Made by a program: the position numbers and the translations under genes
Assembly: GCA_035280505.1 (NCBI GenBank)
Contig: DATEFT010000635.1
Span: forward strand, 1,583 to 65,582
Source: Blastocatellia bacterium
Lineage (GTDB): Bacteria > Acidobacteriota > Blastocatellia > RBC074
Length of the DNA: 64,000 bases
Direction of reading: 5' to 3'
Part shown: positions 1 through 24,464 of the stretch, in pieces
Position numbering within the stretch: position 1 is the stretch's first letter
Layout of the letters: each line of letters starts with the position of its first letter
The notes under the pieces: generated by a model
The model's input: only the letters and a program-made list of their open reading frames with translations
What the model was told of the DNA's origin: nothing
The model's database searches: none

Positions 1-2529
1 ATCAACATCGTCTCCAAGAGCGGGACCAACGAGTTTCACGGCAATTTCTTCAACTATCTGCGCAGCGAGAGCATCGATTCGCGCAATACGTTCGCGACCG
101 GACTGCAACAGAAGCCGAAGTTCCGCCGCAACCAGCCCGGATTTACGCTCGGCGGTCCGATCAGAGACGATAAGACCTTCTTCTTCGCGGCCTACGAGGG
201 GCTCTTCCGGCGCGAATCGGCCATCTCGACGATCCTGGCCGATTCTTCGATCCTGCAGCCGTCCACCACCCAGCAGGCGATCATCAGCACGCTGCTCAGA
301 TCGAACAATCCCAATAACATTCAGTTGGCGCAGAAGCTCCAGGGCCTGCTGACGACCGCCCCCAACAGCCCGGTGCCGGGCGCCGGCCAGTTCTTTCCGC
401 AGAACCGCGCCACGTACAACTATCTCGCCAACTCGACCGGCGCGTTTCCGGTGGAGCAGAATGCGAGCACGGCCAGTTTTCGGCTCGACCATGCCTTCAC
501 GGAGCGGGACTACCTCTTCTTCCGCTACAGCCTGACCAACGACAGTCAGCATAATGCCGGAATCGGCGGACAGTTTGCGCCGTCGTCGGGATTCGACATC
601 GGGAGCCAGGACCACAGCTTCACCTTCGGGGAGACGCACGTCTTCAGAAGAAGCGGCGCCTCGAACGAATTTCGGCTGCAGCTCACGCGCAACATCTACA
701 ACATCAATACCGTCGATCCGTTCGGCCCGCGGGTTCAGATCGCGGGGATCGGATTCTTCGGTCGCGAGTTCGCCTCGCCTTCCGATCGAACCCAGCGGCG
801 CCTGCAATTTCTCGACAACCTGAGCCTGACGCGCGGCCGGCACAACTTCAAATTCGGTGGCGATTTCAGTCACTACAACGTCGACACGTTCAGCGCGGTC
901 TTCCTGGGCGGCACCGTCGATTTCGCCCAACTGCCCATTCCCCTGGCCGCGGTCCTGGACCCGATGGACCCGACCTTCACCGCCCAGTTGAGAGCCTCGC
1001 TGAACGCCCTGGGGCGGAGCGACCTGGCGGCGTCGATCAACGATCCCAATCAACCGCTGACCACCATCCAGCAGGTCAACTTCGGCCTGACGCGCTCGAT
1101 CAACCAGGGCTTCGGCAACCCGCGGGCGACCTTGCCGGGCAATATCCTGGGTTTCTATTGGCAGGACAGCGTCAAGGTCAAATCGAACCTGCAGCTCAGC
1201 TTCGGGATGCGCTACGACTACGACCTGCTGCCGCCCGGCACGCCGCGCGACAAGAACAATATCAGCCCCCGCTTCAGCTTCGCGTATGACCCGTTCAAGA
1301 CCGGACGGACGGTGATCCGGGGCGGCGGCGGAATCTACTATCAACAGTTCTTCGTCGGATCGGCCTTCATCTCCTCGATTCTGGGGACCGGGCAGATCAG
1401 CAACATTCTGGTTTCGGCCAATGCGGCGGCGACACCGGTGGGGCCGAACTCCACCTGCGGGACCGCCCAGATTCCGTCGGCCTGCTTCTACCGGGAGCTG
1501 GTCAGCCGCGGCCTGTTGACGCTGCCGTCGACCGGCACGATTCCGGAGTCGGCCTATGCGGACCTCCTGGGTCTGACCCGCCAGACCAGCAACAACCGGA
1601 TCGTGATCAGACTGGACCCGAACGCCGTCAACCCCTATGCGATTCAGTCCAGCCTGGGCATCGATCAACAGCTCGGCCGGGACTGGAACCTCTCGCTCAA
1701 CTATCTGATCAACCGCGGGATGAAACTGATCCGTCCCCGGCAGGTCAATGCCATCGCCGACCCGACGCAGCTCGACGCCTTCGGGCGCCCGGCCCTGATC
1801 GGAAGAATTGATCAGACCAGGTCGGCCGATTTCGTCACCGAGACCGCGGGCACCTCCGTCTATCACGGGCTGGCCGTCTCGATGAACAAACGGCTGAGCC
1901 GCCATTATCAGGTGATCGGGTCCTACACCTTCAGCAAGGCGATCGACGACGCCACCGACAACAACTTCGAGTTCACTCCCCAGGACCCGACCAATGCCCG
2001 CGCGGATCGCGCGCGTTCGGCCTTCGACGTGCGGCACGTCCTGTCGGTCGCGGCGATCGTCGACAGCCCGTTCCGGGGCGGCGCCGGCCGATCGTTGTAC
2101 GAGCGGGTCCTGTCCGATATGTACCTCTCTCCGATCGTGACCATGCGTTCCGGTTTCCCCTTCAACGTCCTGACCGGAATCGACGTCAACATGGACAACA
2201 ACCCCAACGACCGCCCGTTCGGTCTGGGACGCAACGCCGGGTTCGGCCCCGGCTACTTCAGCACCGATGTGCGGCTCGGCCGGCGCTTCCATCTGGGCTC
2301 CGACAACCCGCGCACGCTCGAGGTCAGCCTCGACACCTTCAATCTCTTCAATCGCGTCAATTATCGGGGGCTGAACAACAACACCGGTGGCGTCCTCTTT
2401 CTCGACCAGCTCACCAATTCGGATCTGGGACTCAAGGGTAGTCCCGACTTGCCGGCCAGCAGTTTCCGGGGATTCACCACGGCTTACGATCCTCGAATTC
2501 TGCAGCTCGGATTGAAACTCAATTTCTAA
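1..2529 (+). CDS. TonB-dependent outer-membrane receptor (CarboxypepD_reg/plug/barrel class), copy 1, 5-prime end cut by window edge
   Basis: Frame 1 is open from nt 1 (INIVSKSGTNEFHGNFF...FRRNQPGFTLGGP), upstream of the TTG-initiated ORF-track entry 325..2529. Colinear with residues ~245-1082 of the 4121..7369 paralog (~80-85% identical by eye). Ends in ...LKLNF. Confidence 0.9.
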   Translation: MNIVSKSGTNEFHGNFFNYLRSESIDSRNTFATGLQQKPKFRRNQPGFTLGGPIRDDKTFFFAAYEGLFRRESAISTILADSSILQPSTTQQAIISTLLRSNNPNNIQLAQKLQGLLTTAPNSPVPGAGQFFPQNRATYNYLANSTGAFPVEQNASTASFRLDHAFTERDYLFFRYSLTNDSQHNAGIGGQFAPSSGFDIGSQDHSFTFGETHVFRRSGASNEFRLQLTRNIYNINTVDPFGPRVQIAGIGFFGREFASPSDRTQRRLQFLDNLSLTRGRHNFKFGGDFSHYNVDTFSAVFLGGTVDFAQLPIPLAAVLDPMDPTFTAQLRASLNALGRSDLAASINDPNQPLTTIQQVNFGLTRSINQGFGNPRATLPGNILGFYWQDSVKVKSNLQLSFGMRYDYDLLPPGTPRDKNNISPRFSFAYDPFKTGRTVIRGGGGIYYQQFFVGSAFISSILGTGQISNILVSANAAATPVGPNSTCGTAQIPSACFYRELVSRGLLTLPSTGTIPESAYADLLGLTRQTSNNRIVIRLDPNAVNPYAIQSSLGIDQQLGRDWNLSLNYLINRGMKLIRPRQVNAIADPTQLDAFGRPALIGRIDQTRSADFVTETAGTSVYHGLAVSMNKRLSRHYQVIGSYTFSKAIDDATDNNFEFTPQDPTNARADRARSAFDVRHVLSVAAIVDSPFRGGAGRSLYERVLSDMYLSPIVTMRSGFPFNVLTGIDVNMDNNPNDRPFGLGRNAGFGPGYFSTDVRLGRRFHLGSDNPRTLEVSLDTFNLFNRVNYRGLNNNTGGVLFLDQLTNSDLGLKGSPDLPASSFRGFTTAYDPRILQLGLKLNF

Positions 2530-2597
2530 ATTCGACTTGGGCTCCCCTTCATTCCGTGGTGCCGGGAATGGATAGGAATGGTGGAATGATGAAGAGT

Positions 2598-2653
2598 GAA
2601 CGCGAATCGCACGAAACTGACACAAAGCCGAAAATTCGTGCGGTTCGCGTTTC
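2598..2653. repeat. Family-A-like imperfect palindrome in the receptor-partner gap
   Basis: Left arm GAACGCGAATCGCACGAA (2598..2615). Right arm TTCGTGCGGTTCGCGTTTC (2635..2653), which is the reverse complement with 1 mismatch and 1 bulge. Confidence 0.75.
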
Positions 2654-2671
2654 GCTCGTTCTTTAAAACTT

Positions 2672-3649: not shown

Positions 3650-3652
3650 CGA

Positions 3653-3681
3653 TTGCCAAGTGCAATCACCACCAGTATAAT
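3653..3681 (+). promoter_or_regulatory. Sigma70-like promoter candidate for receptor copy 2
   Basis: TTGCCA (3653..3658), 17-nt spacer, TATAAT (3676..3681). Lies 4 nt after the upstream stop and ~440 nt before the 4121 start. Confidence 0.45.
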
Positions 3682-4120: not shown

Positions 4121-7100
4121 ATGCTCAAGCAATGCATCCATCTGGTCTGTATCCTGACCACACTCGCTCTGTTCAACATCCCCGTTTTGCCGCAAGCCCG
4201 CAGTTCGGCGGCCGACCTGACCGGCGTCGTCTCGGATCCGACCCAGCTCCGGCTGAAGGGTGCGACCGTGACCGCGGTCAATCTCTCGACCGGGTTCACC
4301 CGGTCATCGACCACCGACGCCACCGGGGCCTACCGTCTTCCGCTCTTGCCGCCCGGCCAATATGAGGTGCGGGTCGAGATCGCGGGCTACAACACGCAGA
4401 TCAAAAAGGGCGTCACGCTGATGGTCGGTCAGACGGTGGCGATCAACTTCGAGATGGCGGTCGGGTTCGCCAAGGAGATCGAGGTGATCCAGACCGACGC
4501 GCCGATCGGGGAGCCCGAGCGGACCCACCAGGCCGAGGTGATCACGCAGAGGCCGATCAACGACTTGCCGATCAACGGCCGCAACTTTCTGTCCTTCGTC
4601 AAATTGACGCCCGGCGTGACCGACGAGAATCCGGCCATCGCCGGCGCGCAGCCGGGGCCGCTGACCACCTCCGGCCTCTCCTTCGCCGGCCAGAACGCCC
4701 GCACCAACAGCGTCCAGATCGACGGCGTCGACAACAACGACGTCACCAGCAACGGCGTCCGGCCGACCATCGGCCAGGAGGCCGTCAGCGAGTTTCAGAT
4801 CAATCGCAACAGCTACAATCCGGAGTTCGGGCGCGCCACCGGCGGCGTGATCAACATCGTCTCCAAGAGCGGGACCAACGATTTTCATGGCAACCTCTTC
4901 GATTTCATCCGCAGCGACGAGATCGACGCGCGCAACAGTTTCGCCACCGGACAGCCGGAGCGGCCGGAATTTCGCCGGAACCAGCCCGGCTTCACCTTCG
5001 GGGGCCCGATCAGAACCGACAAGACCTTCTTCTTCGCGGCCTACGAGGGGCTCTTCCGGCGCGATTCGGCCATCACGACCATTCTGGCGGATCCCTCGAT
5101 CCTGCAGCCCACGACCGGCCAACAGGCCGTCATCCAGACCCTGCTCAGATCCGGGAATCCGACCAACATCTCGAATGCGTTGACGCTGCAGAGCCTGTTG
5201 ACGACCTCCGCCAACAGTCCGGCGCCGCCGTCCGGGCAGTTCTTTCCGCAGAACCGCGCCACATACAACTATCTCTCTCGTTCGACCGGCGCGTTCCCCA
5301 TCGATCAGAACGCGAGCACGGCCAGTTTCCGGCTCGACCACGCCTTCACCGAACAGGACTATCTCTTCTTTCGCTACAGTCTGACCAACGACAGCCTGCA
5401 CAACGCCGGGATCGGCGGACAGTTTGCGCCGTCGTCCGGGTTCGACATCGCGAATCATGATCACACCTTCACCTTCGGGGAGACGCACGTCTTCAAGAAC
5501 AGCGGGGCCTCGAACGAATTCCGCCTGCAACTGACGCGGAACGTCTACAACATCGACCCGGTCGACCCCAATGGACCGCGGCTCCAGATCGCCGGAATCG
5601 GCATGTTCGGCCGCGAGTTTGCTTCGCCCTCCGACCGGACCCAGCGGCGCGTGCAGTTTCTGGACAACCTGAGCTTCACCCGCGGCCGGCACAACTTCAA
5701 AGTCGGAGCCGATTTCAGCCATTACAACGTCGACACCTTCAGCGCGATCTTTCTCGGCGGCAATATCGACTTCGCGCAACTGCCGATCCCGGTCGCCGCG
5801 GTGCTCGACCAGGGGCTGACCAACCAGGTGATCAACGCGCTGGGCAACCTGGGACGGAGCGACCTGATTCCGGTGCTCACCAGTCCCAACCAGCCGCTGA
5901 CCACCGTCCAGCAGGTCAACTTCGGCCTGACGCGTTCGATCAGCCAGGGCTTCGGCAATCCGAGGGCCAAGTTCCCGGGCAATATTCTGGGGCTCTACTG
6001 GCAGGACAGCGTCCGGCTGAGACCGAACCTGCAACTCACCTTCGGGCTACGCTACGACTACGACCTGCTGCCCCCCGGCACGCCCCGCGACAAGAACAAT
6101 TTCGGTCCGCGCTTCAGCTTCGCCTACGACGTCTCCGGGAACGGCCGGACGGTGATCCGTGGCGGCGGCGGCAGTTTCTACCAGCAGTTCTTCGTGGGCT
6201 CGGCCTTCCTCTCGTCGGTGCTGGGCAGCGGGCAGATCAGCACCATCCTGGTCACGCCCGACCAGCGATTGACCCCGGTGGCTCCCAGCTCGCCCTGCGG
6301 CTCGACCTTCTCTCCGTCGGCCTGCTTCTACCAGTTGCTCGTCGGCAGCGGGTTGTTGGGAATGCCCGCGACCAGCCCCATCCCCGAATCGGCCTATGCC
6401 AGCCTGCTGGGTTTGACCCGCCAGACCAGCAACAACCGGCAGGTGATCAGACTGGACCAGAACGCCGTCAATCCCTACGTCATTCAGGCCAGCCTGGGGC
6501 TCGACCAGCAACTCGGTCAAGACTGGAATCTGTCGTTCAACTACCTCCTCAACCGCAGCGCGAAACTGATCCGTCCGCGTCAGGTCAACGCCCTGCCGGA
6601 CCCGACCAGACTCGACGCCTTCGGACGCCCGGCGCTCACGCGGCGCGCGGACCCGACGAAGCTGGCCGATTTCGTCACCGAGACCGCGGGCAACTCGATC
6701 TATCACGGGCTGGCCGTCTCGATGAATAAACGGCTGAGCCGCAACTATCAGGTGATCGGGTCCTACACGCTGAGCAAGACGATCGACGACACCACGGATC
6801 AGAACTATGAGCAGATCCCGCAAGACCCGACCAATACCCGGGTCGATCGCAGCCTCTCGTCGTTCGACGTCCGCCACATCCTCTCGCTGGCGGCGATCGT
6901 CGATAGCCCGTTCCAGGGCGGCGCCGGCAAATCGTTGTACGAGCGGGTCCTGGCCAACATGTACTTCTCGCCGATCATGACCGTGCGTTCCGGGTTCCCC
7001 TTCAATGTTCAGACCGGGATCGACATCAACATGGACAACAACGCCAATGACCGCCCCCTCGGTCTGGGACGCAACGCCGGAATCGGCCCCGGATACTTCA

Positions 7101-7369
7101 GCACCGATGTCCGGGTGGGCCGGCGCATCCGTTTCAGCCCCGACAGCCCGCGCTCGCTCGAGGTCATTCTCGATACCTTCAACCTCTTCAACCGGGTCAA
7201 TTTTAAGGGGGTCAACAACAATACCGCCGGCGTGCTCTATCTCGATCAGCTCGTCGGCTCCGAGATGAGCCTGAAAGGCACTTCGAGCCTGCCGGCGACC
7301 AGTTTCCGGGGCTTCACCTCGGCCTATGATCCCCGAATTGTTCAGCTCGGACTGAAACTCAATTTCTAA
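4121..7369 (+). CDS. TonB-dependent outer-membrane receptor, copy 2
   Basis: 1082 aa. RBS AGGAGGTCAA-ATG. Signal peptide, SSAADLTGVVSD CarboxypepD_reg-like start, plug motifs PINGRNFLSF and FRRNQPGFTFGGP, long barrel, terminal LKLNF. Confidence 0.92.
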   Translation: MLKQCIHLVCILTTLALFNIPVLPQARSSAADLTGVVSDPTQLRLKGATVTAVNLSTGFTRSSTTDATGAYRLPLLPPGQYEVRVEIAGYNTQIKKGVTLMVGQTVAINFEMAVGFAKEIEVIQTDAPIGEPERTHQAEVITQRPINDLPINGRNFLSFVKLTPGVTDENPAIAGAQPGPLTTSGLSFAGQNARTNSVQIDGVDNNDVTSNGVRPTIGQEAVSEFQINRNSYNPEFGRATGGVINIVSKSGTNDFHGNLFDFIRSDEIDARNSFATGQPERPEFRRNQPGFTFGGPIRTDKTFFFAAYEGLFRRDSAITTILADPSILQPTTGQQAVIQTLLRSGNPTNISNALTLQSLLTTSANSPAPPSGQFFPQNRATYNYLSRSTGAFPIDQNASTASFRLDHAFTEQDYLFFRYSLTNDSLHNAGIGGQFAPSSGFDIANHDHTFTFGETHVFKNSGASNEFRLQLTRNVYNIDPVDPNGPRLQIAGIGMFGREFASPSDRTQRRVQFLDNLSFTRGRHNFKVGADFSHYNVDTFSAIFLGGNIDFAQLPIPVAAVLDQGLTNQVINALGNLGRSDLIPVLTSPNQPLTTVQQVNFGLTRSISQGFGNPRAKFPGNILGLYWQDSVRLRPNLQLTFGLRYDYDLLPPGTPRDKNNFGPRFSFAYDVSGNGRTVIRGGGGSFYQQFFVGSAFLSSVLGSGQISTILVTPDQRLTPVAPSSPCGSTFSPSACFYQLLVGSGLLGMPATSPIPESAYASLLGLTRQTSNNRQVIRLDQNAVNPYVIQASLGLDQQLGQDWNLSFNYLLNRSAKLIRPRQVNALPDPTRLDAFGRPALTRRADPTKLADFVTETAGNSIYHGLAVSMNKRLSRNYQVIGSYTLSKTIDDTTDQNYEQIPQDPTNTRVDRSLSSFDVRHILSLAAIVDSPFQGGAGKSLYERVLANMYFSPIMTVRSGFPFNVQTGIDINMDNNANDRPLGLGRNAGIGPGYFSTDVRVGRRIRFSPDSPRSLEVILDTFNLFNRVNFKGVNNNTAGVLYLDQLVGSEMSLKGTSSLPATSFRGFTSAYDPRIVQLGLKLNF

Positions 7370-7538: not shown

Positions 7539-7605
7539 CAAGAGACAGATGGATCGCCAAATAACTTGGTGGCACATAATTTCGCGTTCTCTGTTTTTAA
7601 GATTT

Positions 7606-8732: not shown

Positions 8733-9917
8733 ATGCGATTACGGTTCAGACTGAGTGTCTTGGGTAGAGATCGAATCCTGAAGGCGGCTGTCTCCATCAA
8801 CCTCTTGCTGTTCTGCTGGAGCGCCACGATCTTCGGACAGACGAACGCGAAACGCGAGGCGGGTGACCTCTTTGCCGGGATTGAGCTGGGAACGGACGGC
8901 CTCAGAACGGTGGCCCTCCGCTTCTCCCGCGGAGAAGACGAGCCCAGTCTCAAGCTGCTCTATTCGGAGAATATCCATCTCGGCCTGGGTCGCACCAGCA
9001 GCGGAAAGTTCGCGCCGCGCGCCTCGGAGGAGGCCGCGCAGGCTCTCCAGAAATTGTTGGGGCGCCTGGATCAGCAATACCGCGTCCCCGCCGAACGAAT
9101 CTTTCTGATCGGCAGCAGCAGTCTCGGCGCCGACCATCCGGAGGACCTCCTCGGCACCATCGCCAAGGTCACGGGGCGCACCCTCAACTTTCTCGATGTG
9201 GAGACCGAAGTTCAGCTCAGCATCGTCGGAACCATCTCGCGGCGGGAGAGCATCGGCGATACCTGGATCGACAATCGCAACTCATCCGTCCTGATCGAGA
9301 TCGGCAGCGATAGCACAAAGGGCGGTTACCAGTTGCTGAAATATCTGCCTTCGGCGCCTCCCAGCTACGATTTCGTGACCATGAGCATTCCCCAGGGAAC
9401 GGTCAGCTTCGCCAACGAAATCAGCCGCGCCAACAAGACCGTCAGCGATCTGCCGGGATTCGCCCAGAAAGTCCAGGGCTCGGGCGCCGGCACTCTGCGG
9501 AACGCGCTCCGTAAAGAGTGCGAGAGCAAACCGGGCCTCGTGATTCGCAAACGCGTCTACCTGACGGGCGATATCGTCTGGGCTCTGGCGACCCTGGTCT
9601 ACCCCACCGACCGCCAAAATTTCGTGCCGCTCACGCCCAAGGACATCACCCTCTTCGCCGGCAAAATGGCCGAGAACCCCCAGGAGATGCTCACTCCCGA
9701 CCTCTCGAAGGTCACGGACCGCGACCTGGCTCAGGAGATCGAACGGGAATTGGAAGCCGTCAGAAACACCTTCACGCCCCAACAACTGATCGCCGGAGCC
9801 GAGTTGCTCAAGACCATCTCGACCGAACTCAAATGGCAGGAGAAGAAGATCTGGTTCGCCCGCTTCGGACAGTTGGGCCGCGTCCTGAGTTACGTTCGGC
9901 TCCAGGCCGGAAAGTAG
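8733..9917 (+). CDS. Hypothetical secreted protein, possibly a degenerate ASKHA (Ppx/GppA-like) fold
   Basis: 394 aa with GAGG 7 nt upstream of the ATG. N-terminal hydrophobic segment INLLLFCWSATIFGQ. By-eye resemblance to Ppx/GppA motifs: GIELGTDGLRTV, RIFLIGSSSLG, ETEVQLSIVGT, VLIEIGSDSTKGGY (the usual GGGS is degenerate). Confidence 0.45.
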   Translation: MRLRFRLSVLGRDRILKAAVSINLLLFCWSATIFGQTNAKREAGDLFAGIELGTDGLRTVALRFSRGEDEPSLKLLYSENIHLGLGRTSSGKFAPRASEEAAQALQKLLGRLDQQYRVPAERIFLIGSSSLGADHPEDLLGTIAKVTGRTLNFLDVETEVQLSIVGTISRRESIGDTWIDNRNSSVLIEIGSDSTKGGYQLLKYLPSAPPSYDFVTMSIPQGTVSFANEISRANKTVSDLPGFAQKVQGSGAGTLRNALRKECESKPGLVIRKRVYLTGDIVWALATLVYPTDRQNFVPLTPKDITLFAGKMAENPQEMLTPDLSKVTDRDLAQEIERELEAVRNTFTPQQLIAGAELLKTISTELKWQEKKIWFARFGQLGRVLSYVRLQAGK

Positions 9918-10095: not shown

Positions 10096-10581
10096 TAGCG
10101 GTGTCTGTAAACTAACTAGCTAACACAAATAATTAATATCTGTCCATGCTTCTCAAAGGATCAAAGGATTGCTGTGTCAGGTTTCTCCCGATCTTTCTTT
10201 GAAAGCAGGTACCGGGCGGGCGTCGTTTTGCGCACCGCCTCCAGCTAGCCCCACTAGCACTGCAACATCTAGCCCAGGACTATGTTCGGCAGCAGAATAG
10301 TAATCTGGCGAATAATCAAGATCGTAAATTATTTATAATACGGCTATCACCTTTGACACCGCGCCCTCATTCCATGGGTGTGAGACCTACTTGTGGATAG
10401 TGGCAGTACTTTGTTTGGAAATCATCATAATCGATAAAGCTATTATGATCTCTTAATCATCAATCACTGCCATCCCGACCTCTATCCCTTGAGAGGAAGT
10501 AAGGTCGGATTAGTTACGAGTATCTAACGAGTGGAATTTCATTCTGCTCGTAACAGGTTAATCCACTTAGCAGGAGGTCAC

Positions 10582-13500
10582 ATGTTCAAGCAATTGATAA
10601 GGGGGTTGTGTCTGTTGGCCGTGCTTTGCCTCGGCGCGGTTCCGATTTGGGCTCAGGCCCAGGGCTCGTCGGCGGATTTGACCGGTACCGTCTTTGACCC
10701 TTCGAAAGCGTTAATCAAAGGTGCGACCGTCACCGCGACCAACGTCGAGACGATGTTGACCCGGGTCGTGACGTCCGGCCCGAACGGGGTCTATCGGATC
10801 TCGCTGCTGCCGCCCGGAACGTATGAGGTCAAGAGCGAGGCCCAGGGTTTCAGCCCTCAAGTCAAGCGGGGGGTCACGCTGACCGTCGGACAGACCGCCG
10901 TGATCAATTTCGAGCTGCCGCTGGGCGTCAAGATGGAGGTCGAAGTGATCGACACCTCGGTGCCGCTCCTCGAAATGGAGCGAACCCATCAAGCCAGCAC
11001 CATCACTCAAAAACCGATCAATAATCTGCCGATCAACGGGCGCAATTTTCTGGATTTCGCGAAGCTGACGCCCGGAGTCTCCGACGAGAGTCCGTTGGTG
11101 ACGAAGGTCGCGGTGCCCCAGATTCCGACGTCCGGGCTCTCGTTCGGCGGTCAGAACGGGCGAGCCAACAGCGTGCTGATCGACGGCGTGGACAACAACG
11201 ATATCGCCAGCAACGGCGTCCGCCCGACCATCAGTCAGGAGGCGGTCCGCGAGTATCAGATCAACCGTCAGGGCTATAACCCCGAATTCGGCCGCGCGAG
11301 CGCGGGAACCATCAACCTCGTCACCAAGAGCGGGACCAGCAAGTTCCACGGAAACGTCTACAACTATTTCCGCAACGAACAACTGGATGCCCGCAACACG
11401 TTCGCCACCTCGGCGTCGCAGGATCCGCCCTTCAAGCGGAACCAGCCCGGCTTCACGCTGGGCGGCCCGCTCAGAGCCAAGGCATTCTTCTTCGTTTCGC
11501 ACGAGGGGCTCTATCGCCGGGAGTCGGCGATCACGACCATCCTCTCCGATCCCTCGATTCTGCAACCGACTTCCGGACAGCAGGCGCTGATCAACGCGCT
11601 GCTCGGATCCGGCAATCCGGCCCTGGGTGTGAGGCTGCAAAACATGCTCAACATCGGCCCGAACGCCCAGCCGCCGTTCCAGCGGAATCTGGCGACCTAT
11701 CAATTCCTGAACAATGCGACCGGGATCTTCCCGATTCGCGAAAATTCCTCGACCTCCAACCTCCGGATCGATCAGGCGTTCAACGAACAGGACTATCTCC
11801 TGTTCCGATACAGCTTCACCAACGACGCGATCCATGGGGTCGGAGTCGGCGGTCTGCAGAGCCCTTCCCGAGGCTATGACATCGGAATCATCGATCACGG
11901 ATTCGTGGTGGGCGAGACCCATCTCTTCTCCGGGGGCTCGGCGAACGAGCTTCGTTTTCAGTTCGTGCGTAACACGTTCAACGCCAACACGGTCGATCCG
12001 TACGGTCCGCAGTACAACCTCTTTGGGATCGGAACCCTCGGCCGCGATTTCAGCGCGCCCTCGGATCGCCGGCAATATCGAACGCAATTGCTCGATAACT
12101 TTTCTCTGATGCGAGGAAAGAACAGGATCAAATTCGGCGGCGATTTCAACCGGTACAGCTTCAAGGTCAATCAACCGATCTTCGGAGGCGGCAACATCGA
12201 CTTCTCACCGATTCCGGTCCCGCTGGGCGCGATTCTGGACCCGGCCTATACCGGCCAGGTGCTGACCGCGCTCGGTCCGGGCGGACTGAACCGGCCGGAT
12301 CTGCAGGCGGTCCTGGGGCAGAACCTGACCGTCGTGCAGTTGCTGAATTATGGATTCCCGGCCTCGCTCAACCAGGGATACGGCAATCCCAGCGCCGATC
12401 TTTCGGGGTACCTCTTCGGGACCTACGCGCAAGACGGCGTGCAACTGAAGCCCAATCTGTTCCTGAACTTCGGTCTCCGCTACGATTACGACAAACCTCC
12501 GGCCGGAGTGAATCGCGATCGGAACAATTTCAGCCCGCGAATCGGTTTCTCGTACGATCCGTTCAAATCCGGCAAGACCGTGATCCGCGGCGGCGGCGGA
12601 ATGTTCTACCAACCGCTCTTCACGGCGACGGCCTTCATCTCGACGATTCTGGGCGGCGGACAGATCAGCAATATCCTGGTCACGGCCGATCCCTTGATCT
12701 CGCCGATCGATCCGAATTCATTTTGCGGCCGGCAGCTAGCGACCTCCAGAGTGCCGCCGTCCGCCTGCTTCTACCAGTCACTGGCCGCGCAGGGCGTGAT
12801 CACGCTCCCGTCGACCTCCACGATTCCTGAATCGGCCTACCAGCAACTGCTGGGCCTGAACCGCGCGGGGAGCGTCAATCGGGCGGTGCTGCGGCTGGCC
12901 GACAACGTCGTCAATCCGTATAGTTTTCAGGGCAGCATCGGGATCGATCATGAGTTCGGCCGTGACTTCTTCGTCTCGGTCAACTATCAGCTCAATCACG
13001 GCGTGAACCTGATCCGAAGCCGCCAGATCAACGCGCTCCCCAATCCCAACCGGCTGGATGCGCTGGGGCGCCCATCCCTCACCGGACGCGCCGACCAGAC
13101 GAAACTGATCGACTATATCTATGAGACGGGCGGCAATTCGATCTATCACAGCATGCAGGTGGAGGTGAATCGCAAGTTCGGCCGTTACTATCAGTTGATC
13201 GGAGCCTACACGCTGAGCAAGGCGATCGACGACGCGACCGATCTCGCTTTCGGACAGGGTCCGCAAGACCCGACCAACCCCGGAGCCGATCGCGGTCTTT
13301 CGGCGTTCGATGTCCGGCAACGGCTCACGCTCACCTCGCTGATCGATAGTCCGTTTAAAGGCGGCAGCGGCAAACCGCTCTATCAGCGGGTGCTCGCCAA
13401 CTTCTACTTCTCGCCGATCGCGACCGTGCGCTCCGGTTTCCCATTCAACATCGTCACCGGAATCGACGTCAACCTGGACAACAACATCAACGATCGTCCC

Positions 13501-15484: not shown

Positions 15485-18400
15485 ATGCTCAGAGATCTAG
15501 TAAGGGTATGCTACGTGTTCAGCCTGCTGCTCCTGACCGCCGGGCCCGGTCTGGCCCAGGCGCAGAGTGCTTCAGCCGATCTGACCGGTTCCGTCGCGGA
15601 CCCGTCGAAGGCGGTGGTCTCCGGGGCGACCGTCACGGCGGTCAATCTCGAGACCGGGTTGATTCGAGTCGCGACGTCCGACCTCACCGGCGTCTATCGC
15701 GTCTCGCTGCTGCCGCCCGGCTGCTACGAGTTGAAGGTTCGCGCCGAGGGCTTCAACGTCCAGGTCAAGCGCAACATCATGCTGACCGTCGGCCAGACGG
15801 CGCTGATCAATTTCGATCTGGCGCTCGGCGTCAAGACCGAGACCGAGGTGATCGAGACCAGCACGCCGGTGATCGAGATGGAACGGACCCATCAGTCATC
15901 GACCATCACCCAGAGGCCGATCGATAACCTGCCGCTCAATGGACGCAACTTCCTGGATTTCGCCCGGCTCACACCCGGCGTGGTCGAGGAGAGCCCGGCG
16001 GTGGCGAAGGTCCTGGTTCCTCAACTCCCGACCTCCGGGCTCTCGTTCGCCGGGCAGAATGGACGCTCCAACAGCATCCAGATCGACGGGGTCGACAATA
16101 ACGACATCACCAGCAACGGGGTGCGCCCGACCATCAGTCAGGAGGCGGTCCGGGAGTTCCAGATCAATCGTCATGGCTACAATGCCGAGTTCGGCCGCGC
16201 CAGCGGCGGAGTCATCAACATCGTCTCCAAGAGCGGCTCGAACGAACTGCACGGAAACCTCTACGACTATTTCCGCAACGAGCGGCTCGACGCGCGCAAC
16301 GTCTTCGCCTCGGCCTATCGGCAGGATCCGCCCTTCAAACGCAATCAGCCCGGTTTCACGCTCGGCGGTCCCCTGCAGCGAGATCGAACCTTCTTCTTCG
16401 CCTCATATGAAGGACTGATCAGGCGCGAATCGACGATCTCGACGATCCTGGCCGATCCCTGGATCCTCAATCCGACGACCGGCCAGCAGTCCCTGATCGC
16501 CCCGCTGCTCGGATCGACCAACCCGGATGACGTCCTCCTGGGTCAACAGTTGCAGGCGCTGCTGACGACCACGGCCAACAGCGCACCTCAATCGATCGGC
16601 CCGGCTCTCCAGCAGAACCGCGCCACCTATCACTACCTCGCCGCGTCGACCGGAATCTTTCCCGTCAACGAGACCTCGAACACGGGCAGCCTCCGGATCG
16701 ACCATGCTTTCAGCGAGCAGGACTATCTCTTCTCCAGATACAACCTGACCAACGACAGCCAGCGGAATATCGGGATCGGCGGCCTCTTCGCGCCCTCGGC
16801 CGGTTTCGACTTGGCGATCATCGATCACACCTACGTCCTCGGCGAGACGCATCTCTTCCGGGGCGGTTCGACCAACGAACTGCGGCTCCAACTGGTCCGC
16901 AATGCCTTCAACGCCAACACGGTCGATCCCTTCGGCCCGCATTACCAGATCGCCGGGATCGGCACCTTCGGGCGCGACTTCACCGCCCCCTCGAATCGCA
17001 CGCAATGGCGCGGGCAGGTGCTGGACAACTACAGCGTCAAATGGGGCCGCCATAATTTCAAACTGGGCGGCGATTTCAACCGCTATGCGTTCGAGGTCTA
17101 CAATCCGGTCTTCGGCGGCGGCAACATCGATTTCACCCAGTTGCCGATTCCGCTCGGCGCGGTCTTGAACGGCAAGACCCAAGCGCAATTGAACGCGGCG
17201 CTCTCCAGGTTGGGACGACCCGAACTCGGCTCGGTGCTCCTCCAACCGCTGACCACGGTGCAACAGATCAATTTCGGATTGCCCAGCGCGATCAACCAGG
17301 GCTACGGCAATCCCAACACGAACCTGAACGGCAGCATCCTGGGGCTCTATCTGCAGGACGGCCTGCAGATCAAACCCGATCTCTATTTGAGTTTCGGCCT
17401 TCGTTACGACTACGAACTGCAACCGGACGGCACGCCCCGCGACGGCAACAACCTGGGCCCGCGCTTCGGGTTCACCTATACCCCGTTCAAAGGCGGCAAG
17501 ACCTTGATCCGGGGCGGCGGCGGCCTCTACTATCAATCGCTCTACACGGCGACCGCCTTCATCTCCACGATCCTGGGCCGGGGACAGATCAGCAACGTCC
17601 TGGTCTCGGCCGATCCGCTGCTGACGCCGATCGCCGCCAATTCGCCTTGCGGTCAGGCGCTGGCGTCCGGCCTGCAGCCGTCCTTCTGTTTCTATCAGCA
17701 ATTGGTCGCCGGCGGCCGATTGAGTTTCTCCCCGACCTCGACGATCCCGGAGTCGGCCTATTCGGATCTGCTCGGACTGACGCGCCAAACGAGCGCCAAC
17801 CGCGTGATCCTCAGGCTGGACAACAATGCCGTCAACCCCTACAGCGTTCAGGGCAGCCTCGGCATCGACCATCAGTTCGGGCGCGACCTCTCGCTCTCGG
17901 TCAACTACCTGATCAATCGCGGCACCAAGTTGATCCGAACCCGCCAGGTCAATGCCCTGCCGAACACCGTGATGACCGACGCCTTCGGACGCCCGGCGCT
18001 GACCAACCGCGTCGACCCGACCAGGCTGGCGGATTACGTCTATGAGACGGCGGGGAGTTCGATCTATCACGGTCTGGCCGTCTCTCTCAACAAACGGTTG
18101 AGCCGGCATTACCAGTTGATCGGAGCCTATACCTTCGGCAAGGCCATCGACGACGTGACGGATCTCAACTTCGAACAGGGTCCGCAAGACCCGACCCGGA
18201 TCGGGGCCGACCGGAGTCTCTCGTCATTCAACGTCAGCCACCGGCTTTCGTTGACCTCGCTCTTCGACAGCCCGTTCCGGGGCGGCGCCGGGAGACCGCT
18301 CTACGATCGGATCCTCGCCGATTTCTATCTCTCGCCGATCCTGACCCTCCGGTCCGGTTTCCCCTTCAACATTCGGACCGGAATCGACGTGAATATGGAC

Positions 18401-18733
18401 AACAACAACAACGACCGGCCCTTCGCCGTCGGGAGAAATACCGGCCTCGGACCCGGATTCTTCACCACGGATCTGCGGATCGGCCGCCGGTTCCGGCTCA
18501 GCCCCGACAGCCCGCGCACCATCGAGGCCATCTTCGACACCTTCAACCTCTTCAATCGGGTCAACTATAAAGAGGTGAACGGCAACACCGGCGGCGTGCT
18601 CTATCTCGAACAGTTGGGAATCACCGATTTCCGCGTGACCGGCTGTGCCGACCGGGCCGCCAGCAGCTTCTGCGGCTTCACCTCCGCCTATGAACCGCGC
18701 GTCATTCAACTGGCGGTGAAACTCAATTTCTAA
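15485..18733 (+). CDS. TonB-dependent outer-membrane receptor, copy 4 (no partner gene downstream)
   Basis: 1082 aa. RBS TGGAGGTTAA-ATG. Signal peptide ...GPGLAQAQSASADLTG, plug motifs PLNGRNFLDF and FKRNQPGFTLGGP, terminal LKLNF. Confidence 0.92.
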   Translation: MLRDLVRVCYVFSLLLLTAGPGLAQAQSASADLTGSVADPSKAVVSGATVTAVNLETGLIRVATSDLTGVYRVSLLPPGCYELKVRAEGFNVQVKRNIMLTVGQTALINFDLALGVKTETEVIETSTPVIEMERTHQSSTITQRPIDNLPLNGRNFLDFARLTPGVVEESPAVAKVLVPQLPTSGLSFAGQNGRSNSIQIDGVDNNDITSNGVRPTISQEAVREFQINRHGYNAEFGRASGGVINIVSKSGSNELHGNLYDYFRNERLDARNVFASAYRQDPPFKRNQPGFTLGGPLQRDRTFFFASYEGLIRRESTISTILADPWILNPTTGQQSLIAPLLGSTNPDDVLLGQQLQALLTTTANSAPQSIGPALQQNRATYHYLAASTGIFPVNETSNTGSLRIDHAFSEQDYLFSRYNLTNDSQRNIGIGGLFAPSAGFDLAIIDHTYVLGETHLFRGGSTNELRLQLVRNAFNANTVDPFGPHYQIAGIGTFGRDFTAPSNRTQWRGQVLDNYSVKWGRHNFKLGGDFNRYAFEVYNPVFGGGNIDFTQLPIPLGAVLNGKTQAQLNAALSRLGRPELGSVLLQPLTTVQQINFGLPSAINQGYGNPNTNLNGSILGLYLQDGLQIKPDLYLSFGLRYDYELQPDGTPRDGNNLGPRFGFTYTPFKGGKTLIRGGGGLYYQSLYTATAFISTILGRGQISNVLVSADPLLTPIAANSPCGQALASGLQPSFCFYQQLVAGGRLSFSPTSTIPESAYSDLLGLTRQTSANRVILRLDNNAVNPYSVQGSLGIDHQFGRDLSLSVNYLINRGTKLIRTRQVNALPNTVMTDAFGRPALTNRVDPTRLADYVYETAGSSIYHGLAVSLNKRLSRHYQLIGAYTFGKAIDDVTDLNFEQGPQDPTRIGADRSLSSFNVSHRLSLTSLFDSPFRGGAGRPLYDRILADFYLSPILTLRSGFPFNIRTGIDVNMDNNNNDRPFAVGRNTGLGPGFFTTDLRIGRRFRLSPDSPRTIEAIFDTFNLFNRVNYKEVNGNTGGVLYLEQLGITDFRVTGCADRAASSFCGFTSAYEPRVIQLAVKLNF

Positions 18734-18760
18734 AGATTCTCTTGACCGAATCGATGGCTA

Positions 18761-18954: not shown

Positions 18955-19191
18955 ATGGCTAAGAGATGTCAGGTCACGGGCAAGAAGCCCATGTCCGGTA
19001 ACAATGTTTCACACGCGAACAACAAAACGAAACGCCGTTTTGAACCGAATCTGCAACATCACCGTTTCTGGGTGCCGAGCGAAGGCCGCTGGGTGCGGCT
19101 GCGGGTGACCGCTCGTGGAATCAAGACCATCGACAAGCTCGGAATCGAAAAAGTGCTGGCCGAGATCCGCGCGCGCGGCGAAAAGGTCTAG
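18955..19191 (+). CDS. rpmB: 50S ribosomal protein L28
   Basis: 78 aa. [39 protein letters not shown]...[11 protein letters not shown] is colinear with the L28 family. GAAGGAG RBS. Confidence 0.95.
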
Positions 19192-20022: not shown

Positions 20023-23000
20023 ATGCTGAAGCCAATGATAAGGATATTATCTTTGTGTGCCCTGCTTGTTGTAAGCACCATTTCGGCTTTTGCCCAAGCC
20101 CAAGGTTCATCAGCCGATTTAACCGGCGTCGTCTTTGATTCTTCGAGATCGGTGGTCAGCGGAGCGACGATTACGGCCGTCAATCTGCAGACGCAGTTGA
20201 CGCGCACCACCACCAGCGACTCGAATGGTAACTATCGTATCTCCCTGCTGCCGCCGGGCGAGTATGAGATTAAGGTCAAGGCATCGGGTTTCAATCTTCA
20301 GGTTAAACGGGGTATCGTCCTGACCGTCGGACAGACCGCAGTGATCAATTTCGATCTGCTGATCGGGGTCAAGATGGAGACGGAAGTGATCGAGACCGCC
20401 ATGCCCCTGATCGAGCCCGAACGGACCCACCAGGCTTCGACGATCACCCAGAAACAGATCAGTAATCTGCCGATCAACGGGCGCAATTTTATGGAGTTTA
20501 CGAGGTTGGCGCCCGGCGTGGTCGAGGAGAGTCCGACCGTTACGAACACCCAGGCTCCGCAGTTGCCGACCTCGGGCCTCTCGTTTGCCGGTCAGAGCGG
20601 CCGCGCCAACAGCACTCAGATCGACGGCGTCAGCAACAACGACATCGCCAGTAACGGTGTCCGCCCGACTCTGAGCCAGGAAGCGATTCGGGAGTTTCAG
20701 ATCAATCGCCACGGCTACAGCGCCGAGTTCGGCCGCGCCAGCGGAGGCGTGATCAACATCGTCTCGAAGAGCGGGTCCAACGAATTTCACGGCAACTTCT
20801 ACAACTATTTCCGGAACGAACGGCTCGACGCGCGCAACACTTTCGCCTCGTCATTCCAGCAGGATCCTCCTTTCAAAAGGAATCAACCCGGCTTCACCTT
20901 CGGCGGACCGTTGAGAAGGGACCGCACCTTCTTCTTCCTCGCTTCCGAGGGCCTGCTCCGGCGCGAGTCGGCGATCACGACGGTCCTCAACGATCCTTCG
21001 ATCCTGAACCCGACCTCGGCCCAGCAGGACCTGATCAACACCCTGATCAATTCCGGCAATGCGGCCGCGGCGCTGCAGGGGCAACAGCTCCAGGCCCTGT
21101 TGACGACGGGACCGAACAGCCCGCCGCCGACGATGGGTCCGCTGCAACCGGGACAACCGTTCCAGCAGAATCTCTCGACTTTTAATTTCCTGACCTCCGC
21201 ACAGGGCATCTTCCCGGTGCAGGAGTCGTCGAGCACCACCAGTCTCCGGATCGATGAGGCTTTGAGAGAGCAGGACTATCTCTTCCTCCGGGCCAACTAT
21301 ACCAACGACACGCTGCACAACACCGGCGTGGGCGGCCTCTCGGGTCCGTCGGCGGGTTTCGACAACCGCATTATTGATCGCGCGATTGTTGTCGGTGAGA
21401 ACCATATCTTCAGAAACGGCGCCTCGAACGAGTTCCGCTTCGAGTTTTCGCGCAACGTCTTCAACGCTCACACGGTAGATCCGTTCGGCCCCCAGTATCT
21501 GGTGCCCAGCGTCGGCACCTTCGGCCGGGATTTCAATGCGCCGTCGGATCGCACCCAATATCGGTACCAGTTCCTCGATAATTACAGTTTCAAACGCGGC
21601 CGAAACAACGTCAAATTCGGCGGCGATTTCAGTCACTACCGGTTCAACGTCTCGACCCCGCTCTTCGGCGGCGGCGTCCTGGATTTCTCGCCGGTCGTCC
21701 CGCTCGGGACCTACCTGGCAGGCGTCTACGGTCCGGCCGCGCTCGCGCAATTGACCAACAACCTGCAGACGCCGGTCTCCGCCGGCGGCTTCGGCCGCCC
21801 GGATCTGGTCCAGGCGCTCTCGACGCCGTTGACCTCCGTGCAACATTTGAACCTGGGCCTGCCCCGGGTGATCAATCAGGGCTTCGGCGACCCGACGGCC
21901 AGAATCAGCGGCAATATCCTGGGGCTCTACGCCCAGGACGGTCTGCAATTGAAACCCAATCTCTACCTGAACCTGGGTCTGCGCTACGATTACGACCTGC
22001 AGCCGACGGGGACTCCGCGGGACCCCAACAATTTCGGCCCGCGCGTCGGATTCACGTATAGCCCGAGCCGGAACGGCAAGACCGTGATCCGAGGCGGCGG
22101 CGGTCTCTACTACCAGTCGCTGTACAGCGCGACCTCGTTCATCTCCAGGGTGCTGGGTCAGGGACAGATCACCAATATCCTGGTCTCGATCGATCCGACG
22201 ATGACGCCGGCGGCCCCCAACTCGGTCTGCGCGATGGCGCCGTCTCCGTCGGCCTGCTTCTACCAGACGCTGGTCTCGACCGGAGTCGTGGGTTTCAACT
22301 CGATCGGCAGCATCCCGCAGTCGGCCTACGCGAACCTGCTGGGGTTGACGACCGCGACGAGCAACAATCGGGTGGTGATCAGGCTGCATAACGGGGCGGT
22401 CAACCCCTACAGCCTGCAAGGGAGCCTCGGGGTCGACCGCGAGTTCGGACGAGACCTGTTCGTCTCGGTCAGCTACCTGGTCAATCACGGGGTCAAATTG
22501 GGCCGCACCCGGCAGTCCAACACCTTCGCCGATCCGACCCGGCTCGATGCCTTTGGACGGCCGTCGTTGACCGGACGCCTCGATCCCACCAGATTGGTCG
22601 ATTTCGTCTATGAGACGGCGGGCAATTCGATCTATCACGGGCTGGCCGTGTCGATGAACAAACGATTCAATCGCAACTTCCAATTGATCGCGGCTTACAC
22701 GGTGAGCAAGGCGATCGACGATGCCACCGATCTCAATCTGGACCAGGGACCGCAAGACCCGACCAATGCCCGGCTCGATCGCGGGCTGTCGTCGTTCAAC
22801 GTCGCCCATCGGCTCTCGCTCTCCTCGCTGATCGACAGCCCGTTCCGCAGCGGCGCGGGCCAACCGTTCTATCAGCGGGCGCTGTCCAATTTCTACATCT
22901 CGCCGATCGTGACGGCGCGGTCGGGATTCCCCTTCAACATCCAGACCGGTGTTGACATCAACGGGGACAACAACAACAACGATCGTCCGTTTGCGATCGG

Positions 23001-23301
23001 AAGAAATACCGGGATGGGACCGGCATTCTTCTCGACCGATCTGCGCGTCGGCCGCAAGTTCGCGCTCGGCGCCGACAACGCCCGGTCCATCGAGGCGATT
23101 CTCGACACGTTCAATATCTTCAACCGGGTCAATTATCGTGACGTCAACAACAACACGGGCGGGGTGCTCTACCTCGATCAATTGGGATATTCGGATAGCC
23201 GGATCTCGGGTTGTTCGGATAAATCGACGACTTCACTTTGCGGATTTACTTCCACCTATGACCCGCGAGTCCTTCAACTCGCGCTGAAGCTCAATTTCTA
23301 A
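20023..23301 (+). CDS. TonB-dependent outer-membrane receptor, copy 5
   Basis: 1092 aa. RBS AAGGAGGTCCA-ATG. Signal peptide ...ISAFAQAQGSSADLTG, plug motifs PINGRNFMEF and FKRNQPGFTFGGP, terminal LKLNF. Confidence 0.92.
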   Translation: MLKPMIRILSLCALLVVSTISAFAQAQGSSADLTGVVFDSSRSVVSGATITAVNLQTQLTRTTTSDSNGNYRISLLPPGEYEIKVKASGFNLQVKRGIVLTVGQTAVINFDLLIGVKMETEVIETAMPLIEPERTHQASTITQKQISNLPINGRNFMEFTRLAPGVVEESPTVTNTQAPQLPTSGLSFAGQSGRANSTQIDGVSNNDIASNGVRPTLSQEAIREFQINRHGYSAEFGRASGGVINIVSKSGSNEFHGNFYNYFRNERLDARNTFASSFQQDPPFKRNQPGFTFGGPLRRDRTFFFLASEGLLRRESAITTVLNDPSILNPTSAQQDLINTLINSGNAAAALQGQQLQALLTTGPNSPPPTMGPLQPGQPFQQNLSTFNFLTSAQGIFPVQESSSTTSLRIDEALREQDYLFLRANYTNDTLHNTGVGGLSGPSAGFDNRIIDRAIVVGENHIFRNGASNEFRFEFSRNVFNAHTVDPFGPQYLVPSVGTFGRDFNAPSDRTQYRYQFLDNYSFKRGRNNVKFGGDFSHYRFNVSTPLFGGGVLDFSPVVPLGTYLAGVYGPAALAQLTNNLQTPVSAGGFGRPDLVQALSTPLTSVQHLNLGLPRVINQGFGDPTARISGNILGLYAQDGLQLKPNLYLNLGLRYDYDLQPTGTPRDPNNFGPRVGFTYSPSRNGKTVIRGGGGLYYQSLYSATSFISRVLGQGQITNILVSIDPTMTPAAPNSVCAMAPSPSACFYQTLVSTGVVGFNSIGSIPQSAYANLLGLTTATSNNRVVIRLHNGAVNPYSLQGSLGVDREFGRDLFVSVSYLVNHGVKLGRTRQSNTFADPTRLDAFGRPSLTGRLDPTRLVDFVYETAGNSIYHGLAVSMNKRFNRNFQLIAAYTVSKAIDDATDLNLDQGPQDPTNARLDRGLSSFNVAHRLSLSSLIDSPFRSGAGQPFYQRALSNFYISPIVTARSGFPFNIQTGVDINGDNNNNDRPFAIGRNTGMGPAFFSTDLRVGRKFALGADNARSIEAILDTFNIFNRVNYRDVNNNTGGVLYLDQLGYSDSRISGCSDKSTTSLCGFTSTYDPRVLQLALKLNF

Positions 23302-23345
23302 CCGGACCTTCTTTGAGCGGTCAGGTGAGAGTAGAGGACAGGGAG

Positions 23346-23367
23346 CGCCAGTGATCTGGCACTGGCG
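23346..23367 (+). promoter_or_regulatory. Stem-loop in the receptor-partner gap
   Basis: CGCCAGTG (23346..23353) pairs with CACTGGCG (23360..23367): perfect 8-bp stem, 6-nt loop. Confidence 0.55.
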
Positions 23368-23453
23368 AAGCGGCTGATGACCGAGGTCCAGGTGGCTGGC
23401 GTTCCCCGCACTCAAATGAATGGAAGTCCGGAGGTAGCTGAAGGAGAAGGGAT

Positions 23454-24464
23454 ATGAAAGTCTCTGCGATTGCGATTGCGATTGCGGTGTGTTTAGCGGT
23501 AAACACCAGGTCGCAAACAGCGTCGTTCGAGAATCAGGCTCTGGCCTTAGTGCAACGCACCCTGGCCTCTGACCTGGACGCGGAATTGCCCAAACTTCCG
23601 TTCCCGACCTGGTTCAGTCAACTGCTGGGCCCACAGGCGGGGGTGATTTGGCAATTGACCGAGTGCGGCGAACCGATCAAGGCCTCCACCGAGGAGGGGC
23701 CGGATCTGTGTGCCTGTGCCGAGGTCAACGCCAGCCTGCCGGACGGCCGCAAAGTGATCGTCGCGATCACCATCGGAACCTTCAAAAAGGGGATCACCGG
23801 CACCCCGGCCTTCTTTCATGCCGTCATCGAACGCAACGAACAGCTCTATGATGCCCCCCGGTTGCGCGATCTCCCGGGAATGCTCTCCATGCCGAAACCC
23901 GCCGCGATTCCGGCCGCCAACCGAGCAAGCAAACGAGCCGTCAAGCTGCCCATCATCCGAGCGGAACGAACCAAACTTCAGTTCCTGGTTCAGGCCGATC
24001 CGCTGCGTCTGGCGCTGCTGGCCGCCCCAAACTCCAACCTGCGGCCCGATGTGTCCGACCTGGAACAGACCCCTCCGATTCCGTTAAAGACCGCGCCGAC
24101 GCCCGCCAACGCGCCTCAACCGGTTCCGGCATCCGGCGACACCTCTCAAACGACGGCCAGCCTGACACCGGACACGCCATCGGACGAGCAACTGTTGGAC
24201 GGCAAAGCCATCACCAGAGTCAAACCGGTCTATCCGCCCAACGCCAAATTGATGAACGCGCTCGGAGAGGTCAGGGTGCGAATTACCATCTCGGAACAAG
24301 GAAAGGTCATCGAGGCCAAGGCGATCACCGGGCACATGGCCCTGCGCGGGGCGGCGGTTGAAGCGGCCTTCAGGTGGGTCTTCAAACCGACAACCCTCAA
24401 CGGCGCTCCGGTCAAGGTGCGGGGCATCTTGACCTTCGACTTCACTCACAACTCCCAATACTGA
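23454..24464 (+). CDS. Secreted TonB C-terminal-domain protein, partner of receptor copy 5
   Basis: GGAG RBS. MKVSAIAIAIAVCLAVNTRSQ signal-like segment. WQLTECGEP...DLCACAEVNASLPDGRKVIV...GTFKKG domain. TonB_C end (VKPVYPPNAKLMNALGEVRVRITISEQGKV...WVFKPTTLNGAPVKVRGILTFDF). Confidence 0.8.
   Translation: MKVSAIAIAIAVCLAVNTRSQTASFENQALALVQRTLASDLDAELPKLPFPTWFSQLLGPQAGVIWQLTECGEPIKASTEEGPDLCACAEVNASLPDGRKVIVAITIGTFKKGITGTPAFFHAVIERNEQLYDAPRLRDLPGMLSMPKPAAIPAANRASKRAVKLPIIRAERTKLQFLVQADPLRLALLAAPNSNLRPDVSDLEQTPPIPLKTAPTPANAPQPVPASGDTSQTTASLTPDTPSDEQLLDGKAITRVKPVYPPNAKLMNALGEVRVRITISEQGKVIEAKAITGHMALRGAAVEAAFRWVFKPTTLNGAPVKVRGILTFDFTHNSQY

Follow-up and report, generated by a model that had tools for sequence, protein, structure and literature searches.

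Tandem Oar-class transporter genes with anchorless TonB_C-domain partner genes in a Blastocatellia genome

Outer-membrane loci in which a TonB-dependent transporter (TBDT) has a dedicated TonB-family partner are already known, and so are stand-alone domains fused to TonB's C-terminal domain (CTD; TonB_C). HasB of Serratia and FusB of Pectobacterium are encoded beside one transporter and are specific for it, and both keep an inner-membrane anchor and use ExbBD (PMC3602595, PMC7593965). Bacteroides thetaiotaomicron has 11 TonB homologues, including domain fusions, among them TonB8 (BT3673, DUF4488 + TonB_C), whose gene closes RG-II PUL3; according to the same work, no TonB protein that carries an extra domain has yet been characterized for function (10.1101/2023.07.07.548152). 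In Myxococcus xanthus the gene of the TBDT Oar adjoins exbB/exbD/tonB1 and has no partner made of TonB_C only (PMC6434023). The locus described here occupies positions 1-24,464 of a 64 kb stretch of contig DATEFT010000635.1 (the window, meaning the whole stretch analyzed) from a metagenome-assembled genome (MAG) of Blastocatellia, phylum Acidobacteriota. It holds five receptor genes (R1 to R5), four genes for partners ending in TonB_C (P1, P2, P3 and P5) and a further gene, X. P combines a TonB docking domain with an exported N-terminal domain (N-domain) and lacks the membrane anchor of TonB. Since the docking domain is present and that anchor is missing, P more likely serves as an accessory that docks on its transporter than as the transporter's private power supply.

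The receptors resemble Oar in their signal peptide, CarboxypepD_reg domain, TonB-box-like motif around residues 118-125, divergent plug-like stretch, very large barrel and length of ~1,060-1,090 aa. Unlike the oar locus, the window has no motor genes and contains five tandem paralogues, four of them with an anchorless TonB_C partner. The CTD of P could be superposed with Foldseek on those of FusB (7zc8, probability 1.00) and HasB (2m2k, probability 0.80), whereas the short Sec-type leader and the extra globular domain set P apart from both. With TonB8, P shares a mostly stand-alone domain that is fused to TonB_C in a minority of cases, a place in a transporter locus and the lack of a characterized function. 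The two differ in extra domain and in phylum; P, moreover, is present in several copies, has duplicated together with its receptor and is linked to X. A preliminary description of this DNA, made from the sequence alone, had regarded the partner as a break with the model of one TonB serving many receptors. HasB, FusB and the 11 B. thetaiotaomicron homologues are exceptions to that model which were already known; the novelty lies in an architecture without the anchor, in the exported N-domain family, in arrays of several copies and in the R-P-X triad. No published account of this Acidobacteriota system was found in a literature search. The anatomy of the system is solid and unusual, and its function and mechanism are inferred. 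Acidobacteriota count among the most abundant bacteria of soils, and the Oar-type transporters that they have in great number are uncharacterized in substrate and mechanics. A TonB docking domain that is split from the anchor, pairs one-to-one with a receptor and is linked with a phosphohydrolase-like protein makes a natural test case for what the TonB-box handshake may accomplish apart from force transmission.

The receptor-partner array and its recurrence

The open reading frame (ORF) list and the translations gave five receptor ORFs and four partner ORFs, all on the + strand, in agreement with the preliminary description. R1 (1..2529) is cut at the window start and has a full length of 1085 aa in a second assembly (L027). 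The other receptors are R2 (4121..7369, 1082 aa), R3 (10582..13812, 1076 aa; ORF, Pfam and identity), R4 (15485..18733, 1082 aa; ORF, identity and tblastn) and R5 (20023..23301, 1092 aa; ORF and identity). The partners are P1 (2672..3649, 325 aa), for which no upstream ORF extension is possible, P2 (7606..8553, 315 aa) and P3 (13970..15007, 345 aa), both from ORF and Pfam evidence, and P5 (23454..24464, 336 aa; Pfam and database match). They follow their receptors after gaps of 142, 236, 157 and 152 nt, which is the spacing given previously. The lengths given with it, 1082-1093 aa for receptors and 325-345 aa for partners, are corrected here for R3 and P2. Alternative starts exist for these two genes, an ATG at 7549 that would add 19 charged, non-transmembrane residues to P2 and a GTG at 10531 that would add 17 aa to R3. 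In both cases the downstream start fits the family alignment and, for R3, also the Shine-Dalgarno context.

Identity between R1 and R2 was 77%, lower than the ~80-85% estimated by eye, whereas the 64-66% found among R3-R5 fell within the estimate of ~60-70%. Other receptor pairs were 57-66% identical and the partners of the window 49-64%. Repeat families at the DNA level ran in the same register as the genes and confirmed paralogy. The array is therefore a true tandem array of paralogues, as had been described, but not a pure one: X (8733..9917, +) and the ribosomal protein L28 gene rpmB (18955..19191, +; between R4 and R5) lie inside it and had been overlooked. R4 is without a partner gene; tblastn at E<=10 detected no remnant downstream of R4, where the gap contains rpmB, and the idea of a degraded partner there was rejected. 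P5 was 100% identical to a database protein of a Blastocatellia MAG. The R2 protein had no database record and P1 had one only on a 5.5 kb contig.

The common architecture noted earlier for the receptors was borne out by Pfam and the translations. CarboxypepD_reg (PF13620, E 2e-21) covers residues 33-112 and is followed by a divergent plug and an OMP_b-brl_4 barrel (PF25183, E 1e-106 to 1e-112), which in R2 begins at residue 247 and, like CarboxypepD_reg, lies behind a signal peptide. The motifs SSADLTG, PINGRNF and NRNQPGFT are present, and all C-termini read ...KLNF with a terminal aromatic residue. When region 113-260 was isolated and compared with Plug (PF07715), it aligned to model positions 8-107 of 107 with E 7e-4 and 20.5 bits, below the gathering score of 23.9. 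The plug was the most conserved part of the receptors, with 76% mean identity, and the sole match of R2 in a search of PDB sequences was a weak one, to the plug of FusA. Between the N-terminal extension and the plug lies the motif E-x-[VIE]-V-[IV]-x-T (R2 residues 119-125, EIEVIQT, 4475..4495, +), which was kept in 14/14 aligned receptors and is TonB-box-like by position. The TonB box of Oar has E118 and I122 at the equivalent position (PMC6434023). The receptors are classed as predicted TBDTs of the Oar subclass because of the CarboxypepD_reg domain, the plug-like stretch, the PF25183 barrel and the TonB-box-like motif at Oar's position, an assignment made by architecture as in PMC6434023.

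A scan of species-representative genomes yielded 26 loci, nearly all of them in MAGs of Blastocatellia; P was present in 4-7 copies per genome. Adjacency was tallied for 33 P genes from the window, the scanned loci and locus L028, with a limit of 450 nt. A receptor 56-66% identical to those of the window was found directly upstream of P in 17/31 assessable cases, X was directly downstream of P in 13/27 cases, and an Oar-class TBDT was present somewhere in the fetched flanks of 29/33 P genes. Two consecutive R-P-X triads occur in L028, and the order R-P-R-P-R-P in L003/L009. Pairwise distances of R and P were strongly correlated (r=0.88, 14 pairs, Mantel p=1e-4), and so were those of P and X (r=0.90, 12 pairs, Mantel p=1e-4). 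Judged from the sequences, this co-variation fits co-duplication and co-evolution of R, P and X. Incongruent receptor and partner trees, adjacency not conserved in related genomes, or an ordinary TonB role already characterized for the partner family had been named as grounds against a duplicated two-gene unit. The distance matrices were instead congruent, R-P adjacency recurred in other Blastocatellia MAGs, and no characterized function was found for the P family, whose database names are automatic only ('TonB family protein'). The duplication of the R-P pair is therefore real, and the earlier picture has to be amended in that X is often present as a third gene.

The partner protein

TonB_C (PF03544) was found at the extreme C-terminus of 4/4 partners with E 6e-15 to 2e-13, and NCBIfam also matched. 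Pfam detected nothing else in P, DUF4488 included. The CTD of ~85 residues (in P5 about residues 251-336, 24204..24461, +) matched the TonB CTDs in the FoxA, BtuB and FhuA complexes, and FusB, with a Foldseek probability of 1.00. Invariant in 25 family members were Y260-P261, G271, G283, W308 and, in the final strand, L326, F328 and F330. YP, the two Gly and the Trp are hallmark residues of the TonB CTD (10.1101/2023.07.07.548152).

The linker (in P5 about residues 151-250, 23904..24203, +) consists of ~100 disordered, proline-rich residues with PPPP runs. It is the fastest-evolving part of P, with about 36% identity; a single short motif within it, [KN]R-x-[VI]-x-L-P-x-I-x-A-D, is conserved and lies directly upstream of the polyproline stretch. 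The ExbD-binding D-box of E. coli TonB is found in the same place (PMC10907165). As an equivalent of the D-box the motif was unsupported, since it resembles QPISVTMVTPAD weakly, at 4/10 positions, and has a Pro in mid-strand. Tandem peptide repeats were seen in the linkers of P3 (AKPGAKPGAKPG, window 14630-14700) and of a partner in L028 (TGAKTGAKTGAK, about 4130-4200).

The leader of P, counted from Met to an invariant Gln, is 18-21 residues long and variable in sequence, with a median uncharged run of 10. It has about 10-14 hydrophobic residues, no cytoplasmic tail and no long transmembrane helix. In P1, P3 and P5 the ORF opens with the earliest start codon past an upstream stop, which excludes a hidden cytoplasmic or transmembrane extension. 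The leaders of the window partners end in TLA-Q, TPA-Q, VAA-Q and TRS-Q, which are acceptable signal-peptidase sites. A lipoprotein anchor was considered and rejected, as the Cys of the leader is not kept throughout, being absent from P1, and has no lipobox ahead of it. In canonical TonB the transmembrane helix has an SHLS/His motif that is conserved (PMC12204202), and a His or SxxxH ahead of the invariant Gln was found in 0/97 P homologues. Of the features of a TonB transducer, P thus has the CTD and the proline-rich linker and lacks the N-terminal inner-membrane helix with SHLS/His. Because this anchor and the ExbB-coupling motif are missing, P is not classed as a TonB in the working sense, and the reading of P as a private TonB, suggested by the preliminary description, holds only in part: in place of the anchor P has a short Sec-type leader and an exported N-domain.

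The N-domain (P5 residues 21-150, 23514..23903, +) comprises ~125 residues after the Gln, in which the motifs WQLxECG, AC and GxFK and two cysteines are invariant. In its confident AlphaFold model (pLDDT 80-97) helices precede a sheet of five strands, an alpha+beta arrangement. Pfam gave no match, and Foldseek against the PDB returned only NTF2-like and ketosteroid-isomerase-like structures at probabilities of 0.1-0.28; no fold was assigned because all of these matches were of low probability. A profile search with the N-domain collected 697 cluster representatives, which fell into three groups, TonB_C fusions of ~300 aa, stand-alone proteins of ~150 aa and tandem doubles. The stand-alone proteins have classical AxA-Q signal peptides that end at the same Gln as in P. 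Since it is found alone, doubled or fused to TonB_C, the N-domain appears by sequence to be an autonomous exported module, and P to be this module tethered to a TonB docking domain. In two loci a stand-alone N-domain gene (143 aa) lies between two Phenol_MetA_deg (PF13557) genes (L029 7225-9316; L030 2716-4789). PF13557 is an outer-membrane barrel family, so that these flanks would be another pairing of the N-domain with outer-membrane channels.

It is unlikely that P is a genuine dedicated TonB paralogue, with the short segment as a signal anchor, or with a motor capturing P in trans through the N-domain or the D-box-like linker strand, so that the force of ExbBD reaches the neighbouring receptor as in HasB/HasR and FusB/FusA. 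The CTD is canonical with all hallmark residues invariant, the linker is long enough for the periplasm, its conserved motif sits at the position of the E. coli D-box (PMC10907165), and P adjoins and co-duplicates with its receptor like hasB and fusB (PMC3602595, PMC7593965). The short leader without a cytoplasmic tail is difficult to reconcile with such a role, all the more as it is not conserved and, unlike canonical TonB (PMC12204202), lacks the Ser/His motif in 97/97 homologues. The N-domain is, furthermore, also a free exported protein with textbook cleavable signal peptides, and the agreement of the linker motif with the D-box is limited to the 4/10 positions given above, with the Pro in mid-strand. 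Finally, no exbB, exbD or tonB gene was found beside P in the fetched flanks of the related loci. The window itself lacks exbB/exbD/tonB, SusD and ECF sigma genes throughout its 64 kb, so that an absence previously reported for the array holds over the whole stretch.

Gene X and a possible role of the module

X lies between P2 and R3 and encodes 394 aa with a signal-peptide-like N-terminus; in the conserved R-P-X module it comes third. It belongs to no Pfam or NCBIfam family; PF02541 scored 16.2 bits against a cut-off of 27, too low for membership by sequence, and the best match of an X profile among PDB sequences was not significant (E 0.1). The AlphaFold2 model (pLDDT 85.5) has a two-lobed ASKHA fold, for which Foldseek gave E 1e-14 and TM 0.6-0.7 to Ppx/GppA and NTPDases (3cer, 6pbz, 7epq, 1t6c, 4bra). 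E51, E159, E/D189, G191, G198 and G279 were kept in 27 homologues. By eye, against the Ppx motifs, we take E51 to correspond to phosphate-1, E159 to the catalytic Glu, E/D189-G191-G198 to phosphate-2 and G279 to the adenosine motif. Both loop aspartate positions are mostly Glu in X, a difference from Ppx/GppA that adds to the sequence score below the Pfam threshold. Pfam detected no C-terminal HD-like domain in X. Ppx/GppA enzymes are cytoplasmic, whereas X is predicted to be exported. X is thus a predicted exported protein of ASKHA phosphohydrolase fold with a putative phosphoanhydride hydrolase activity. X was missed when the array was described as being without any hint at a substrate. It is the only such hint, and the modelled fold hints at a phosphoanhydride such as polyphosphate or nucleotides. 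This provides a first substrate hypothesis for one transporter clade, namely uptake or release of polyphosphate or nucleotides.

An alternative is that the module exports in the manner of Myxococcus Oar with PopC, with X (a phosphohydrolase whose site of action would be extracellular) and/or P as cargo and the CTD of P as an adaptor to the periplasmic face of the receptor. Such a function is quite improbable. It would agree with the place of R in the Oar subclass, as Oar, the one member discussed in the cited literature, secretes a protein (PMC6434023, PMC11658791). P and X are moreover both predicted to be Sec-exported, are tightly linked and co-vary, and the nearest structural relatives of X include the Legionella NTPDase, which is secreted. 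X is absent, however, from 3/4 modules of the window, PopC secretion needs no TonB_C adaptor, neither P nor X has a sequence mark of surface or extracellular location, and TBDTs mostly import.

We favour the reading, with a probability of roughly 45%, that R-P(-X) forms an outer-membrane transport module of Blastocatellia, amplified in tandem, whose P component docks on R without transducing energy, and that a conventional Ton system supplies the force. P would be exported by its short Sec-type leader and would be soluble, consisting of a disulfide-type N-domain, a proline-rich tether of ~100 residues and the TonB CTD. It would dock on its cognate receptor by a beta-strand handshake (beta-augmentation) with the TonB box, as TonB does. 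Once docked, P could keep the N-domain, together with X if there is one, below the barrel at the exit of the transporter, where cargo would be received, processed or gated, while the pulling force would come from a conventional TonB-ExbB-ExbD encoded elsewhere in the genome.

Several points weigh against this proposal. If bound to the TonB box, a soluble TonB CTD would be in competition with the cell's own TonB, and a purely docking role therefore requires an unexplained hand-over step. Periplasmic fragments of E. coli TonB inhibit transport. A linker of 100 residues that spans the periplasm is what a transducer needs and not obviously what a docking subunit needs. In homologues the residue before the invariant Gln is often Pro or part of Gly-Val-Pro, so that the cleavage site is non-canonical there and a short uncleaved anchor may persist. 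The co-variation stems in part from shared species phylogeny, and in a region-by-region mirror-tree comparison of R and P all regions behaved alike (0.76-0.85); no interface was mapped because all regions co-vary about equally. X is present in just one of the four window modules, P-X occurs without an adjacent R in L020, and a cupin gene separates a distant TBDT from P in L012, L014 and L017.

More broadly, P may tentatively be seen as a new class of soluble periplasmic adaptor, carrying cargo such as X to or from an Oar-type transporter, or as a force transducer that lacks an anchor and is caught in trans by the motor; in both cases the R-P-X set would amount to an undescribed outer-membrane module of three components for transport or secretion, amplified in Acidobacteriota. 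Very improbable is a role of P as a negative regulator or decoy that occupies the TonB box of its own receptor until a signal arrives, rationing scarce TonB among dozens of receptors or blocking bacteriocin or phage entry, for although the CTD is intact and anchorless, the R-P pairing is one-to-one and co-evolving, and TBDTs far outnumber TonB with the roles of extra TonBs unknown (PMC11658791), a decoy has no use for a conserved N-domain, a linker motif and a linked enzyme-like X, the N-domain also exists without TonB_C, and an inhibitor co-transcribed with its target is wasteful unless released, with no release mechanism visible.

Genomic setting of the array

A second recurrent context of P consists of a distant Oar-class TBDT, a cupin with a Tat signal, P, X and then a protein of 600-790 aa. 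The cupin is ~460 aa long and has a twin-arginine-type signal (SRREFV); the context was seen in L012 (4256-5632 and 8095-9909), L014, L017, L011 and L015. The 600-790 aa protein had no Pfam match and is followed in L012, L014 and L015 by panB and a phosphopantothenate-synthetase-like gene. L017 (TBDT-cupin-P-X) and L022 (P gene) come from MAGs labelled uncultured Heliobacteriaceae (Firmicutes), with a locus of Acidobacteriota type; the label is probably wrong or the bin contaminated. In L024 (6001-6937) a P homologue was recovered by tblastn in two pieces in different frames (residues 1-81 and 71-332), which is either a frameshifted pseudogene or an assembly error.

The gene order P-X-rpmB-DUF4350-DUF4129 was found in L020 (6001-10804), and the same flanking genes surround R4-rpmB-R5-P5 in the window. 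As the rpmB/DUF4350/DUF4129 flanks are common to both, gene order suggests that the window array is a local expansion at a conserved chromosomal site, with R-P modules inserted around P-X-rpmB. Directly past the array, at 24474-28351 (-), lie three genes, for DUF4350 (467 aa), for DUF4129 (351 aa) and for a protein of 436 aa without a Pfam match, the first two being those syntenic in L020.

The near-identical start context GGAGGT-N3-ATG reported for the receptors was present at 4/4 visible receptor starts. An alignment of the 260 nt upstream of R2-R5 revealed nothing in common beyond the Shine-Dalgarno sequence and the ATG. Promoter and terminator scans gave counts no higher than in shuffled sequences, and nothing between R and P. 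The best sigma-70-like match of the region (3653-3681, +; 11/12, TTGCCA-17-TATAAT) lies directly past the P1 stop, 440 nt upstream of R2. No Rfam family reached its gathering score anywhere in the window.

The remaining 40 kb of the window contain ordinary housekeeping and catabolic genes, including ftsH, tilS, obg and an apparent Phe/Tyr degradation cluster. This cluster (35538-41280, +) encodes an aromatic amino-acid hydroxylase that depends on biopterin, a glyoxalase-fold protein resembling 4-hydroxyphenylpyruvate dioxygenase, homogentisate 1,2-dioxygenase, a protein of 294 aa without any Pfam match, and fumarylacetoacetase.

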